Origin: Puia sp.
GTDB lineage: Bacteria > Bacteroidota > Bacteroidia > Chitinophagales > Chitinophagaceae
NCBI GenBank assembly: GCA_036499285.1
Contig: DASYEB010000040.1
Location: 8,151-72,150, forward strand
Direction of reading: 5' to 3'
Length of the DNA stretch: 64,000 nt
Positions within the stretch are counted from its first letter, which is position 1; every line of letters begins with the position of its first letter. Positions 4,331 to 11,385 of this stretch are shown in pieces. The notes beneath the pieces were generated by a model. That model saw nothing but the letters and a program-made list of their open reading frames with translations, was not told where the DNA came from and searched no databases. The position numbers and the translations under genes are program-made.

Positions 4331-6889
4331 ATGAGAAAAGTTCTAATCGCGCTGACACTGCTTTCCGGTATCTCAGCTGCTGTCGCGCAGCAACGCCCCG
4401 GCAATCCAACTCAAACACCCCCGGCAGGCGCCCCGGCAACGGCACGCGCGGGAGCTGCAGCCCAGCCCAAACCGTATAAAGAAGTTATCACAGACAAAGC
4501 GATCAGCCATAGTGGCCTGTTCACGGTGCATAAGATCGAAGACAAATGGTATTTCGAGATCCCCGATTCAATTCTTGGGCGGGATATCCTCGTTAGCACC
4601 CGTTATAGCAAGACCGCTGCCGGCGGCGGCTTCTACGGCGGGGAACAGGTGAACCTGCAGACGATCAACTGGGTGAAAGGCCCTTCTCACACCCTGTTCC
4701 TGAAAGTGCTGACCATCGTCAGCGTAGCGACTGACAGCAGTCAGCCCATCGCGCAGGCCGTGACAAATTCGAATATGAACCCCATAGCAGCCGCATTCGA
4801 CATCAAAGCCTATGGCAAGAGTGCAGATTCTTCTTCCGGTACCACAGTGATCGATGTGACTGATTTCTTTAAAGGCGATAACCAGGCGGTGAGCCTGACG
4901 CCGGGTATCAAAAGACGTTTCAGCCTGGCTGCCATCGCCGCAGACCGGAGTTATATAGAGAACATTCATACCTACCCGATCAATACGGAGATCAGGACGG
5001 TGAAGACGTTCACCGCCTCGCCTGCACCGGCTGCCCCAAATGCCGGCGGACGTGGAGGAGCCGGCAGCCTGCCTGCCGCAGATATTACCGGAGCCGTGTC
5101 GATAGAGCTGAATAATTCCTTCCTGCTCCTGCCGAAAACACCGATGCGCAAACGGCTGTTCGATGCCCGTGTAGGCTTCTTTGCCAGTCAGTATACAATC
5201 TATGGAGATGATCAGCAGCGGGTGGAAGAAAGCCGTTTCATACACCACTGGCGCCTGGAGCCAAAAGACGAAGACATCGGGAAATGGAAACGCGGAGAGC
5301 TGGTAGAGCCCAAAAAACAGATCGTTTATTATATCGATCCCGCTACGCCAAAAAAATGGCGTCCTTTCCTCATTGCCGGTATCAATGACTGGCAGGCTGC
5401 TTTTGAAAAGGCTGGGTTTAAGAATGCCATCGTCGGTAAAGAATGGCCGGAGAATGACAAGACGATGAGCATGGAAGACGCACGGTTCTCAGTGATCCGG
5501 TATTTTGCCAGCGACATCGAGAATGCTTATGGCCCCAATGTTGCCGACCCACGCAGCGGCGAGATCCTGGAAAGCCATATCGGCTGGTACCACAACGTAA
5601 TGAAGCTGGTACATGACTGGTATATGATCCAGACCGCTGCCGTAGACCCAAGGGCAAGGAGGATGAAGTTTGACGACGAGCTGATGGGCGACCTGATCCG
5701 GTTTGTCTCATCTCACGAAGTCGGCCATACGCTGGGTCTGCGTCACAACATGGGCAGCAGCAGCAAGACACCGGTAGAGAAGCTCCGTGACAAAGCCTGG
5801 GTAGAAGCCAACGGACATACGGCCTCCATTATGGACTATGCACGTTTTAATTACGTCGCACAGCCAGAGGATAATATCTCCTGGAAGGGTTTGTATCCAA
5901 GGATCGGCGATTATGACAAGTGGGCGATCCTTTGGGGTTACAAGGGTATTCCCGGTACCAAAAATGAAGAGGAAGATAAAATGATCCTCAATAAATGGGT
6001 CATCGATAGTCTGAAGTCTAATCCACGCCTCTGGTTTGGAGGAGAAGGTCAGAATCCCGACCCCCGCGCCCAGACAGAAGACCTCGGTGACAACAGCGTC
6101 AAAGCGAGCGAGTACGGTATCAAAAATCTGAAACGCATCCTGCCCAACCTGCCTGAGTGGACGAAGGAAGAGGCCGACCAGTACGATAACCTGGAAGAAA
6201 TGTATGGCCAGCTGGTGGGACAGTTCAGCCGTTATATGGGACATGTGGTCAAAAATGTCGGCGGTATCCAGGAGACCTTCAAGAGCGTGGAACAACCCGG
6301 AGATACCTACGAGGTCACACCCAAAACCACACAGAAAGAAGCGGTGGATTTCCTGAATAAGCAATTGTTCGCAACACCAGCGTGGCTGTTGAATAAAGAG
6401 ATCCTCAATAAATTTAGTAATCCGGGAAGTGCAGAACAGGTCGCGACGATACAGGCCAATGTTTTAAAAGGCCTTTTGTCTTCTGCCCGCCTGTTCCGCA
6501 TGTCGGTGTGCACGGGCCGTTATGGCAGCGCGGCTTATGGTGTGGATGAAATGCTGGCTGATGCCAAAAAAGGCGTTTGGACAGAGCTGACGGCAGCCTC
6601 CCCCATCGATATCTTCCGGCGGAATCTGCAAAAGGTATATACCGATGCCCTTATTAACCTCATGAATGCGACTCCGCCTGCAGTGCCAGCGGGACTGCCT
6701 CCGGGATTGGCATCGTTATTTGGAGGAGATATTAAGAATACGGACGTGCCTTCCATCGCAAGGGCTCAGCTGGTGGAGCTGAGAACCGAAATAGCTGGCG
6801 CAATACCGCGTGAGACCGATAAATTGAGTAAATATCATTTGCAGGATGTGCAGGAGCGAATTAAACAGGCGCTGAATCCAAAACAATAA
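4331..6889 (+). CDS. Secreted zinc-dependent metalloprotease (metzincin, EcxA/DUF5117-DUF4953-like)
   Basis: Signal peptide, HEVGHTLGLRH zinc motif and downstream Met-turn SIMDY. Confidence 0.88.
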   Translation: MRKVLIALTLLSGISAAVAQQRPGNPTQTPPAGAPATARAGAAAQPKPYKEVITDKAISHSGLFTVHKIEDKWYFEIPDSILGRDILVSTRYSKTAAGGGFYGGEQVNLQTINWVKGPSHTLFLKVLTIVSVATDSSQPIAQAVTNSNMNPIAAAFDIKAYGKSADSSSGTTVIDVTDFFKGDNQAVSLTPGIKRRFSLAAIAADRSYIENIHTYPINTEIRTVKTFTASPAPAAPNAGGRGGAGSLPAADITGAVSIELNNSFLLLPKTPMRKRLFDARVGFFASQYTIYGDDQQRVEESRFIHHWRLEPKDEDIGKWKRGELVEPKKQIVYYIDPATPKKWRPFLIAGINDWQAAFEKAGFKNAIVGKEWPENDKTMSMEDARFSVIRYFASDIENAYGPNVADPRSGEILESHIGWYHNVMKLVHDWYMIQTAAVDPRARRMKFDDELMGDLIRFVSSHEVGHTLGLRHNMGSSSKTPVEKLRDKAWVEANGHTASIMDYARFNYVAQPEDNISWKGLYPRIGDYDKWAILWGYKGIPGTKNEEEDKMILNKWVIDSLKSNPRLWFGGEGQNPDPRAQTEDLGDNSVKASEYGIKNLKRILPNLPEWTKEEADQYDNLEEMYGQLVGQFSRYMGHVVKNVGGIQETFKSVEQPGDTYEVTPKTTQKEAVDFLNKQLFATPAWLLNKEILNKFSNPGSAEQVATIQANVLKGLLSSARLFRMSVCTGRYGSAAYGVDEMLADAKKGVWTELTAASPIDIFRRNLQKVYTDALINLMNATPPAVPAGLPPGLASLFGGDIKNTDVPSIARAQLVELRTEIAGAIPRETDKLSKYHLQDVQERIKQALNPKQ

Positions 6890-6932: not shown

Positions 6933-9389
6933 TTAGTTGGTAAACCCACCGGATGAATTAGCCCGTTTGCTTTCTTCCTCAAGGCCGGATTTTCGCTGGC
7001 GGGCATTCTTTACCTGTGAGTTTCCAAACTTGTAGGTGAATGAGACCTTTAGCTGGCGACTTTCATTTCCGCCGGTGACGCGGAGATATTGACCCGCAAA
7101 GTCACTGGTGGCAGTCCATTGCAGCGTATGAAAGATATCGCTTACCGAGACTTTAACCGTTCCCTGCTTGTTAAGGATAAGTTTTTGTATCCCTGCATCC
7201 AGGTTGCCCAGCGCATGCGTTTTAAAGGTCCCCTGCCAGACAGAGGGCGAGGTATAAAAGCCTGACAGCTCCGCCGTCCAGCCCTTGCCGAGGCGCGCGG
7301 TCTGCTGGGCAAAGATATTGGCGGAAAAGACGTTGACATCCACCGCCCGGCCAGTTCCGAAACTGGCCTTATAGACAGAATAATAGGTATTCACATTTGC
7401 AAACACGCTATACCATTTATACTGGAAGGGATAGCTGATGTTTAGGCTGACGATATCCTGTGTCGCGAGGTTTTGCTTGCTGATAAAGGCTTTTGACCTG
7501 TCCGCCGTATCCACAAGCTGGGTAAATACATCCTTTACGTGGCTGTAGTTCAAGGTAGTGGTCAGCTTGTATTTGTAGACATAGGTGAGTCCAACGCTGT
7601 TTGTATATTGCGGGCGCAGTCCCGTATTGCCTTTCTGATAGGTATATTCGTCGAGCTTGAACTCAAATGGATTGAGGTCCTGGTAGGCGGGCCGGTCTAT
7701 CCGCCGGCTATAGGCAAGCGTCCATTGTTTCATCGGATCCTTGTTATAGGTTATGGCCCCACTGGGAAAGAAGCCTGTATAGTGACGGCTAAAGGAGGAG
7801 TCGTATGTTGCATAACCACCCGCCGACTCTTTATAACCGATAGAGATCCCTTTGGCATTGGTGTTTTCCACTCTGAGCCCGGCCTGGATCATAAGTCCTT
7901 TAAAGTTCCTGTTATAGTTGGCATAGACGGCATTGATATTTTCTTTATAGTTGAAGCCATTGCTGTGGAGGGTGTCTTTTACTTTCGCATTGGGGTAGAC
8001 ATTATATTGCTGAAAGTCGTTGTCACTGGTTGTGTAGGTCGTTTTAAAGCCGAGGCCCAGGCGTCCCTTTTTAAAGTTCTGCTCGTAGTCGGTCTTGAAG
8101 CTGTAGAGATCGATGTCAGTAGGGGCAAGCATATTAAAGACATCACTGTAGAGCAGGACGCCCCCGGAAGGATCAAAATAGAGGTTGGGCTGAAGCTGAT
8201 TACTCCGCAAGCGATAGATGCCATAGTCTGCGTCCATATTCAGGTCATGACCCAGCGAGTCGGTATGCCGGTAATTCAGGTTCAGGTTGCCATTGTTCTT
8301 CTTTCCATTATTGCTGTTATTAGCTTGCAGGACCTTTACGACGTCCCCGTCGGGAATATAGGAAATGGGAGTGCTGCTTTGGGTCCGGGTATTATAATTG
8401 GAAAGAGAGCCATCGACCATTATTCCCAGCGTGTTGTTCCTGTTCAGGAAATAATCAAGACCGGTCTTGAAAGTATGCGTTTCGGCAGCGTTGATGATCT
8501 TTGAATGCTGATCAAATAAAGTATCCAGCTGTTTGCGATAGAGATCGAGACGGATGGCATTGGTCGTATTGCTATAGTTATAATTCCCGAACCAATTGAT
8601 ATGGTTGTCCCGGTGATTCAGGGAAAGACCGCCATTGTAGTTGGAATGGATGCCGATGCCATATCCACCGGTGAGAGAGCCATTGTTACCAAAGGATTTG
8701 TTCTTCTTCAGACGGATGTTGATAATGCCGGCATTCCCCGATGCATCATAACGGGCCGAAGGATTGGAGATGATCTCTATCGATTCGATCTGTGAAGACT
8801 GTATGGTCTTCAGGTAATCAGAGAGATCGGTGCCGCTGAGCGGTACCTGTCGTCCATCGACATAGACCTTGATGCCATTCTTGCCGCTAAGGCTGATATT
8901 ATTATCCTTGTCAACCATTATACCCGGAGACTTCCGCAGCAGCTCCAAAGCATCCTGCCCTACGGCATTGATACTGCCTTCCACATTGAGAATAGTCTTG
9001 TCTGCCTTTACCTCTATCATTGGTTTGCGGGTGCTGACGACGACTTCTTTCAGATTGTCGCCGGATGCCCTGCCCAGTTGGACAACCGCGACGATCCGGG
9101 GTTCCTTTTCGCTAACCATAAAAGAAGGAGAAACACGGACGGGATATCCCACATGGGAAAGCTGCACGAAATAGCTGCCGGGCTTAATGTTATCAAAGCC
9201 GTATCTTCCTTTTTCATCGCTGGTTGTGTATTTTACGATCGATGAGTCCGGCGCATTTATCTTTCGAAGACCGACGGAGACACCTGGTACGGGCTTTTGG
9301 GTTTCATCGACGATAGTGCCGGAGATCTGCTGCGCTGTCACCGCAAAGTGAAGAAGGGCTGTGAGGATAAGTAAAGTAAATTTTCGCAT
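6933..9389 (-). CDS. TonB-dependent receptor / outer-membrane beta-barrel family protein with N-terminal carboxypeptidase-regulatory-like domain
   Basis: Signal peptide (ATG 9389, alternative 9410), plug motifs LKEVVV and IESIEIISNPSARYDASGNAGIINI, alternating beta-strand pattern, C-terminal SFTYKFG. Confidence 0.88.
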   Translation of the reverse strand: MRKFTLLILTALLHFAVTAQQISGTIVDETQKPVPGVSVGLRKINAPDSSIVKYTTSDEKGRYGFDNIKPGSYFVQLSHVGYPVRVSPSFMVSEKEPRIVAVVQLGRASGDNLKEVVVSTRKPMIEVKADKTILNVEGSINAVGQDALELLRKSPGIMVDKDNNISLSGKNGIKVYVDGRQVPLSGTDLSDYLKTIQSSQIESIEIISNPSARYDASGNAGIINIRLKKNKSFGNNGSLTGGYGIGIHSNYNGGLSLNHRDNHINWFGNYNYSNTTNAIRLDLYRKQLDTLFDQHSKIINAAETHTFKTGLDYFLNRNNTLGIMVDGSLSNYNTRTQSSTPISYIPDGDVVKVLQANNSNNGKKNNGNLNLNYRHTDSLGHDLNMDADYGIYRLRSNQLQPNLYFDPSGGVLLYSDVFNMLAPTDIDLYSFKTDYEQNFKKGRLGLGFKTTYTTSDNDFQQYNVYPNAKVKDTLHSNGFNYKENINAVYANYNRNFKGLMIQAGLRVENTNAKGISIGYKESAGGYATYDSSFSRHYTGFFPSGAITYNKDPMKQWTLAYSRRIDRPAYQDLNPFEFKLDEYTYQKGNTGLRPQYTNSVGLTYVYKYKLTTTLNYSHVKDVFTQLVDTADRSKAFISKQNLATQDIVSLNISYPFQYKWYSVFANVNTYYSVYKASFGTGRAVDVNVFSANIFAQQTARLGKGWTAELSGFYTSPSVWQGTFKTHALGNLDAGIQKLILNKQGTVKVSVSDIFHTLQWTATSDFAGQYLRVTGGNESRQLKVSFTYKFGNSQVKNARQRKSGLEEESKRANSSGGFTN

Positions 9390-9445
9390 AAAATCAGTTT
9401 TATAAAGCATAAAACTAATTCGGAGGAGGGGCGGGGATAAACGTT

Positions 9446-9499
9446 TTTAGCTGAGGTGGATGGGATTTAGCTGAAATGCAGGATTTGCCCGACGAACGG
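9446..9499 (-). promoter_or_regulatory. Candidate LytTR-binding repeats upstream of the receptor gene
   Basis: Minus strand CCGTTCGTCGGGCAAA (9484-9499) matches the box at 11386-11401 at 13/16 positions. TCAGCTAAA is directly repeated at 9446-9454 and 9466-9474. Confidence 0.55.
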
Positions 9500-9523: not shown

Positions 9524-10231
9524 TCATTTGTAGATCCTGTCCAGGACTTCCTGACGGTGTTCGCGGGAGATGGGGATAAGCTTGCCGTCAATTTCAACAC
9601 AGTTGCCATCGATCATGCTCACTTTGTCGATCGCTATCGTATACGAACGGTGGACGCGGACAAATTTATCGGCGGGCAGCTTATCGGTAATGTCAGTCAG
9701 CGATTGATAGCTTATCCAGGCCTGGCTGGGTGTTTTTACCCGGATATAGTCTTTCAGGCTTTCGATGTACAGGATATCGTTGACGAGGACTTTTACGAAC
9801 TTTCTGTCCACTTTAAGAAAGAGATAGTCGTTGCCGGCTGGCTTGTCCTTTTCTTCTTTTTTGGGTGCAGGCTGACTAAGTTTCACTACTTTTTCCAGCG
9901 CTTTCATGAACCGGGGGAAGGAGATGGGCTTGACAAGGTAATCGATGACTTCCAGTTCAAAGCCTTCCACAGCATAATCCCGGTAGGCGGTGGTAATAAT
10001 GATGCGCGGCGGATCTTTAACGCTTTTCAGAAATTCAAGCCCCGAAAGAAGAGGCATTTCAATGTCGAGGAAGATGAGATCATAGGGTTTGGCTTGCAGG
10101 GCCTGGAAGGCTTCGACGGCGTTCTCACAACGGGTGATGTTACGGGCGTCGAGCCGTTGAAGATAGTTCTCGATCACATCGATGGCGAGAGGTTCGTCAT
10201 CCACGATCATATAGTTGAGGGACCTCAGCAT
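9524..10231 (-). CDS. LytR/AlgR-family response regulator (REC + LytTR)
   Basis: IVDDEPLA, LIFLDIEMP (phospho-Asp), FTTAY-like ITTAY, DYLVKP, and LytTR motifs YIESLKDY and FVRVHRSY. Confidence 0.96.
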   Translation of the reverse strand: MLRSLNYMIVDDEPLAIDVIENYLQRLDARNITRCENAVEAFQALQAKPYDLIFLDIEMPLLSGLEFLKSVKDPPRIIITTAYRDYAVEGFELEVIDYLVKPISFPRFMKALEKVVKLSQPAPKKEEKDKPAGNDYLFLKVDRKFVKVLVNDILYIESLKDYIRVKTPSQAWISYQSLTDITDKLPADKFVRVHRSYTIAIDKVSMIDGNCVEIDGKLIPISREHRQEVLDRIYK

Positions 10232-11322
10232 AATGGCATTTTTAAGGATACGCTGAATTTTGCATCTTCGGTCCGGATATCCAGGGTATAATTGTCACCA
10301 TACAGAAGGTCAAGCCTCCGCCGGACATTTTTAAGACCGATGCCTTTGCTTTCCGCCGGCGCCTCGTCTTCCGTGACAGGGTTGTCAACTCTGAACTAAA
10401 GGAATTCTGTGTCGAGCTTCAGGGAGATCTCAATATGGATCTTGCTGATGTTATTCTTGACGCCGTGCTTGAAGCTGTTTTCAAGAAAGAGGATGAGGAT
10501 CATAGGCGGGATGTTTACCTCCTCTATAAAACCCGTCCGCGTAAAGGAAACGGAAAGACGCTGGCCAAAGCGAAGCTGCTCGACGTCCAGATAGTTTTGC
10601 AGGTAGTCGATCTCTTTCGACAAAGGTACCAGCGGAACGTTGGATTCATAGAGCATATAGCTCATCAGGTCGGATAATTTCAGGATGATCCCGGGAGCCT
10701 CGTCTGATTTTTTCAGGGTAAGCGAGTAGATGTTATTAAGGGTATTGAAAAAGAAATGCGGATGGATCTGGGAACGGAGGAATTTCAGTTCTGTTTCGAG
10801 ATAGTGTTTTTCTTTTTCCTTCATCCATTGCTGGTTGAGAATGGAGTCTTTAACGAATTTCATTCCGGTGACCATCCCGACCAGATAGGTCTCCTGGATA
10901 AAGCCGACAGCCAGGTTGTTCCTGGTAAAGATGGGCATGTCGCCGGCACGCCAGGAACCCGTTTTGAAGAAATGGTAGATCTCGTCCAGTACCATAATAA
11001 ATACAGAACAGGCTATGATGGTCAGGAACAGGACAACCGCATAGGTTTTATATCTTTTTGTAAAGAGGAAACGCGGGATCAGTATATAGATATTCAAATA
11101 GGCGAATGAAGCCTGAAACGCCAAAAAGACGAGATACGTGATGCAGGAGACCAGGGTCAGCTTCTCATGCAGGCTCATATACAGGATCAGCATCAGCACG
11201 TAATACGCAAGCCAGAAAAGCAGGTGATAGAGCCAGCGTTTCTTAAGGAGGCCCGAGCCCTGCAGATCCTTTGCAAAGGAGGGTCCGGTAAGAGCGCTGA
11301 TATTTGGGGTGGGATCCGACAT
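10225..11322 (-). pseudogene. LytS/YehU-type membrane sensor histidine kinase interrupted by an in-frame TAG at 10396-10398
   Basis: Four TM segments, LRSQIHPHFFFNTLNNIY H-box and ENSFKHG N-box. After the TAG the same frame continues FRVDNP...KGIGLKNVRRRLDLLYG...LKMPLC to TGA at 10225-10227, which overlaps the LytTR ATG. Confidence 0.75.
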
Positions 11323-11385
11323 GGCAATTGACCAAAATTAAGGGTTTTGGAAAAAGAGGATGCAAGAGTTCTCCGGATTGCATGG

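Follow-up and report, generated by a model that had tools for sequence, protein, structure and literature searches.

A premature amber codon in a LytS/YehU-type sensor kinase gene of Puia sp.: probably a young nonsense mutation

In a stretch of 64,000 nucleotides of the genome of Puia sp. (assembly GCA_036499285.1, contig DASYEB010000040.1, forward-strand positions 8,151 to 72,150), which in its full length is called the window, a histidine kinase gene ends with an amber codon 56 codons short of a stop that overlaps the start of the adjacent response regulator gene. Does this codon represent a genuine nonsense mutation, an error of sequencing or assembly, or a stop that the organism reads through to obtain a full-length kinase?

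The kinase ORF starts with the ATG at position 11322 and extends on the minus strand over 308 codons (10399..11322), ending in ...ISLKLDTEFL, upon which TAG (CTA on the plus strand) follows as codon 309 (10398..10396, minus strand). The changed base is window position 10396, a C on the plus strand, which is the G of the codon. Past TAG, a tail of 56 in-frame sense codons (10395..10228, minus strand) encoding FRVDNPVTEDEAPAESKGIGLKNVRRRLDLLYGDNYTLDIRTEDAKFSVSLKMPLC leads to the original kinase stop TGA (10227..10225, minus strand), and the frame between TAG and TGA contains neither other stops nor indels. The original kinase frame including its former stop (11322..10225, minus strand) would encode 365 aa if TAG were read through. 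Its end overlaps the regulator ATG (10231..10229) by seven nucleotides, the shared sequence being ATGCTGA. The sequence-only reading of this DNA, which had reported the amber codon at 10396-10398, the 56 codons and the TGA overlapping the regulator ATG, proved exact.

An open stretch of 56 codons is on its own unremarkable, as 15% of the long ORFs ended by TAG in this genome are followed by one. The feature is judged real not because the stretch stays open, but because the tail is homologous to relatives, sharing 54-55 of its 56 residues with the C-terminal ends of full-length proteins. Among the 24 PF06580 paralogues encoded by the genome this open frame is the shortest, with 313 aa versus at least 348 aa in the other 23. 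The stop site, CCTTTAGTTCAG, contains no homopolymer or repeat. Phase variation was considered and rejected, as neither a simple repeat nor an invertible element is present at the stop site.

The adjacent gene (9524..10231, minus strand) encodes an intact LytTR-family response regulator of 235 aa (PF00072, 77.9 bits; PF04397, 61.9 bits) with the receiver Asp56 and a LytTR DNA-binding domain, which is 93-96% identical to its relatives and carries two unique residues. The earlier description of the pair as a LytS-type kinase coupled to a response regulator agrees with the Pfam assignments, PF06580 for the kinase and LytTR for its partner.

Kinase domains on either side of the stop

The DHp domain is recognized by Pfam as His_kinase PF06580 at residues 177-256, with 93.1 bits versus a cut-off of 25.2, and harbours the phospho-acceptor motif SQIHPHFFFNTLNN (residues 184-197), which is invariant in 32 relatives and aligns with SQINPHFLFNTLN of the kinase GanS. 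The N-box LENSFKHG comprises residues 280-287 and precedes the stop; alignment with GanS places both the acceptor motif SQIHPHFFFNTLN and ENSFKHG of the N-box upstream of it. About four N-terminal membrane helices are predicted (residues 29-50, 57-86, 91-121 and 134-185). The Pfam match to HATPase_c_5 is weak, with 17.9 bits under the 22-bit cut-off, and spans the stop (residues 279-362).

What lies past the stop has been delineated by the GanS alignment and by an AlphaFold2 model built from 32 sequences, which is of moderate confidence (mean pLDDT 73) and has GanS and AgrC as its best fold matches. Alignment and model both position the Asp of the G1 box (D313-N-P, residues 313-315) and the G2 box G327-I-G-L (residues 327-330) with its helix (328-341) beyond TAG, as had been claimed for the G-box; the model adds the ATP-lid loop of 12 residues (316-327) and the last two GHKL beta-strands (346-352 and 355-363). 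At the G1 position VDNPVTED of the query is aligned with DNGVGMD of GanS, and at G2 GIGLKNV with GIGLHNV. Y309 itself falls in the model within beta-strand 307-315, which leads to the G1 box.

A complete GHKL ATPase with N, G1 and G2 boxes is thus not encoded in one uninterrupted frame, and the gene is a LytS/YehU-type kinase by descent, but broken. Its 308-aa product still comprises the membrane sensor, the DHp domain including the acceptor His, and the N-box; missing are the Asp of G1, the lid over ATP, G2, one helix and approximately three of the sheet's strands. As the G1 Asp, the lid and G2 are lost, the product should, judging from GHKL kinases in general, be unable to bind ATP or to autophosphorylate, and the leftover half of the catalytic domain probably misfolds. 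The proposal that the truncated product is kinase-dead is supported by the location of G1 and G2 beyond the stop, with the loss of activity predicted from sequence.

With the kinases of the LytS/YehU(BtsS)/YpdA type the protein has PF06580 with the HPHFxFN acceptor motif, the N-box and the membrane N-terminus in common, with LytS/YehU-type systems also the adjacent overlapping LytTR regulator gene, and its relatives are named LytS/YehU or LytT-family sensor kinases by the sources. In contrast to the LytS/YehU type, the window ORF stops before G1 and G2, and the N-terminus displays only the approximately four membrane helices and no match to the 5TMR-LYT sensor domain. Furthermore, the G1 box of this subfamily is DNP and not DNG in all relatives. 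The kinase domain of GanS from Geobacillus stearothermophilus (PDB 6SWJ/6SWK) is the best match by sequence (E 2.4e-14) as well as by fold (E 2e-8, TM 0.63 on target), with an alignment that covers both the DHp and the catalytic domain, G1 and G2 included. However, the two are only 26% identical, and GanS, which is intact, has another kind of sensor and of regulator partner.

Codon 309 and its locus in relatives

A search of 5.8 billion proteins yielded thousands of full-length relatives, most of them about 360-365 aa long, the closest being 92-96% identical on the amino acid level. Codon 309 encodes Tyr in 32 of the 32 relatives examined (50-96% identity), in the context ...EFLYF[RK]VDNP.... 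This set consists of 12 top matches, 11 members of the 90% cluster, the orthologue from the same-genus genome G005 (locus L003; 69% identical, with Tyr at 309) and further contigs, all proteins being full-length or cut only N-terminally by a contig end. On the DNA level, the Tyr codon is TAC or TAT in all eight relatives inspected (TAC in L022, L023, L030, L031 and L032, TAT in L029, and Tyr likewise in L024 and L025). As the relatives possess TAC or TAT at this position, a single third-position substitution in the conserved Tyr309 codon would have given rise to TAG; that TAT or TAC is one substitution away had been pointed out beforehand, together with the comparison that has now been run.

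Apart from the records that carry TAG, the searches brought up no genome or contig of this species, the nearest relative being about 91% identical on the nucleotide and 96% on the amino acid level. When the metagenome contigs were searched for an exact match to 29 nt in which the mutated base was set to N, no same-species contig with either allele turned up, and the pattern made degenerate at synonymous sites retrieved only four metagenome contigs, of 90-91.5% identity and all with Tyr codons.

The gene order, with two amidohydrolases, the kinase, the LytTR regulator and a TonB-dependent-receptor-like gene, is conserved in relatives, and so is the 7-nt overlap of kinase and regulator (in one example the kinase ends at 6197 and the regulator starts at 6191). 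In L022 and in L024/L025, the small amidohydrolase and the kinase are separated by a MacB/FtsX-type permease gene of opposite orientation, with 793 aa in L024/L025 and as a 217-aa remnant in L022; at the permease site the window has only a 163-nt spacer (11323-11485) with a terminator-like hairpin (11432-11461). The TonB-dependent-receptor-like outer-membrane protein of the window (6933..9410, minus strand) is intact with 825 aa and syntenic, its relatives displaying CarboxypepD_reg, Plug and OMP_b-brl_3 domains. The gene is single in the window and in L024 (818-825 aa) and called as two pieces of 447 and 319 aa in L022 (7065-9520; a relative of about 91% nucleotide and 93% amino acid identity), which could reflect a separate disruption of this locus in a different lineage.

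Two exact direct repeats TTTGCGCGATG (coding strand CATCGCGCAAA; 11386..11417), 21 bp apart, precede the kinase ATG by about 65-95 nt and lie within approximately 100 nt that are nearly identical in relatives differing by about 9% in the coding region. The repeats are a candidate LytTR autoregulatory site, as their spacing fits direct-repeat sites of the LytTR type. A third, weak copy with 3 of 16 mismatches, not significant alone, is found at 9484-9499 upstream of the TonB-dependent-receptor-like gene.

With respect to the age of the stop, one of the 56 residues of the tail is unique to this genome (E353D, at a variable position), compared with 6 of 308 in the translated part, which is the same rate. 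As about five unique replacements would roughly be expected under free drift, we infer that the stop is recent on the branch since the nearest sampled relatives. Tail, regulator and promoter repeats are undecayed and the stop would therefore be young, although an undecayed tail is equally expected from a sequencing error or from efficient read-through.

Nonsense mutation, artefact or read-through

A sense codon one substitution away in relatives and homologous in-frame sequence past the stop together mark a nonsense pseudogene, and probably the codon is a real, evolutionarily young nonsense mutation, Tyr309 to TAG, in a LytS/YehU-type (PF06580) kinase. The gene would then be an ordinary bacterial pseudogene arising by a single nonsense substitution. 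Common to such pseudogenes and this locus are the one substitution from a conserved sense codon, the homologous in-frame tail and the intact neighbours, while the sole oddity here is the youth of the lesion, to which no secondary lesions have been added. Out of the three options that the sequence-only reading had offered, the nonsense mutation is favoured and read-through is unsupported, whereas sequencing error has become less probable without being eliminated.

An error of sequencing, consensus or assembly would mean that the organism really has TAC or TAT and an intact kinase. Such an artefact would be expected to leave tail, regulator and promoter perfectly preserved, as is seen, and only one base is changed. 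However, the exact 308-aa product is also encoded, with TAG, on a 477-kb JGI contig of the soil metagenome 3300036781 (IMG), which displays no mismatch to the window over the 6,927 bp and 26,318 bp sampled. According to coordinate arithmetic, position 1 of the JGI contig corresponds approximately to position 108,906 of the 151,599-bp contig that holds the window. As each contig extends past the other, the two are products of different assemblies and not copies, and a chance error of the assembler is unlikely when TAG appears in both despite their differing contig boundaries. On the other hand, the two records with TAG may, with 0 differences in 33 kb, share the same reads, and a systematic sequencing error common to both assemblies would fit as well. 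Against this, the site lacks the homopolymers or repeats mentioned above, and CTTCAG/CTGAAG, the only known methylation-type motif to which the ancestral sequence would give rise, shows no depletion in the genome (observed/expected 0.97), so that avoidance of CTTCAG (an AcuI/Eco57I-type site) or an error linked to its methylation was rejected. Real nonsense polymorphisms are much more frequent than erroneous substitutions in a consensus of normal coverage. Altogether, an artefact of any of these kinds is unlikely, although a consensus error is the main rival of the nonsense mutation.

Functional read-through, by a suppressor tRNA or by near-cognate decoding of UAG, would provide a useful full-length kinase in a hypomorphic or conditional manner, and is compatible with the frame open to the original TGA, with the undecayed tail and with the two tRNA-Tyr(GTA) genes of the genome; low-level basal misreading of UAG occurs in all bacteria. 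Nevertheless, we regard it as very improbable. No tRNA with a CUA anticodon is among the 48 tRNAs of the genome detected by ARAGORN at default and relaxed threshold, in an assembly that may miss a few tRNA genes, as the default threshold yielded no tRNA-Trp. Among the 4,283 ORFs that encode 200 aa or more, 992 (23%) are terminated by TAG, open stretches after TAG are genome-wide no longer than after TAA or TGA, and in the window TAG closes nine further ORFs of this size, five of which match the lengths of genes called independently on the JGI contig. The same nine ORFs uphold the previous argument that general recoding is improbable as other genes end in TAG. Programmed read-through sites are conserved, but TAG is absent at codon 309 from every relative examined. 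Elsewhere in the genome, TAG occurs in frame a second time, in place of the Trp of a WD repeat and not of a Tyr, which leaves TAG without a single consistent meaning. General recoding, either by a suppressor tRNA or by pyrrolysine, is excluded, there being no tRNA-CUA, no conservation of the stop and common use of TAG as a terminator. A codon-usage log-odds scan for stops flanked by coding-like sequence ranked this site first among 501 candidates but is too unspecific, and TAG is not in excess among these candidates (140 TAG versus 182 TGA and 179 TAA). An unprogrammed basal leak through TAG is possible, and nothing suggests more. Scarcely credible is a split kinase, in which the tail, the frame being open after TAG, would be translated separately by re-initiation and reassemble with the N-terminal piece: there is no in-frame ATG, GTG or TTG between TAG and codon 362, which is the only in-frame ATG of a tail devoid of in-frame GTG and TTG; the break would, according to the model, fall inside a beta-strand of the fold; and no relative examined shows such an arrangement.

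Other observations concern the genome at large. The second in-frame TAG resides in a WD40-repeat gene (G000:C23:46201-47397, minus strand; L028:1202-2398) at an expected repeat Trp (...SSIGV*DLTG...), with the WD40 Pfam matches running on across TAG. A 312-aa ORF upstream ends 2 nt before the WD40 ATG in another frame, and the gene may be a larger one broken by a frameshift and a stop. From about position 309610 of contig C41 (G000, plus strand), a tandem repeat with a unit of about seven codons, in frame NLRCSTNLRYGTDLRCSTDLRCSTNLRNSTNLRNSTDLQNST..., follows immediately upon the stop codon of an EamA-type transporter gene. In the 51 contigs, ARAGORN at default settings found no tRNA-Trp(CCA), tmRNA, tRNA-Ile(GAT) or tRNA-Ala(TGC), while tRNA-Ile(TAT) is present; as tRNA-Ile(GAT) and tRNA-Ala(TGC) are also among those not found, the contigs seem to lack rRNA operons and some of the tRNA clusters.

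Predicted consequences for the LytTR regulator and its likely targets

If codon 309 has become TAG by nonsense mutation, translation would halt within the beta-strand leading to the G1 box and the LytTR regulator would be deprived of its cognate phosphodonor. In addition, translation of the regulator may drop, because ribosomes would now terminate 168 nt short of the point where the stop and start codons overlap. The likely target of the regulator is the operon's own promoter via the direct repeats, and the downstream TonB-dependent-receptor-like gene is a possible target of the kinase/regulator system, perhaps affected as well. These targets would stay at the state set by the unphosphorylated regulator, unless another donor phosphorylates it.

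The stump with its DHp domain could possibly, if speculatively, possess residual phosphatase activity or a dominant-negative role. Taken further, the stump might be kept as useful, as a constitutive phosphatase or as a dominant-negative protein that locks the LytTR regulon off, or small amounts of full-length kinase might still arise through occasional near-cognate decoding of UAG; in either case the nonsense allele would be an adaptive down-tuning in the soil population rather than neutral decay, a scenario we hold to be decidedly unlikely.

For annotation, the young nonsense mutation, as the preferred reading, means that the kinase gene should be labelled a pseudogene or a truncated kinase, and its LytTR neighbour an orphan regulator, with TAG confirmed as a normal stop in this lineage. 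The locus would thereby represent a clear-cut case of a loss-of-function allele of very recent origin, affecting one out of 24 paralogous systems of the LytS type in a soil Chitinophagaceae genome.
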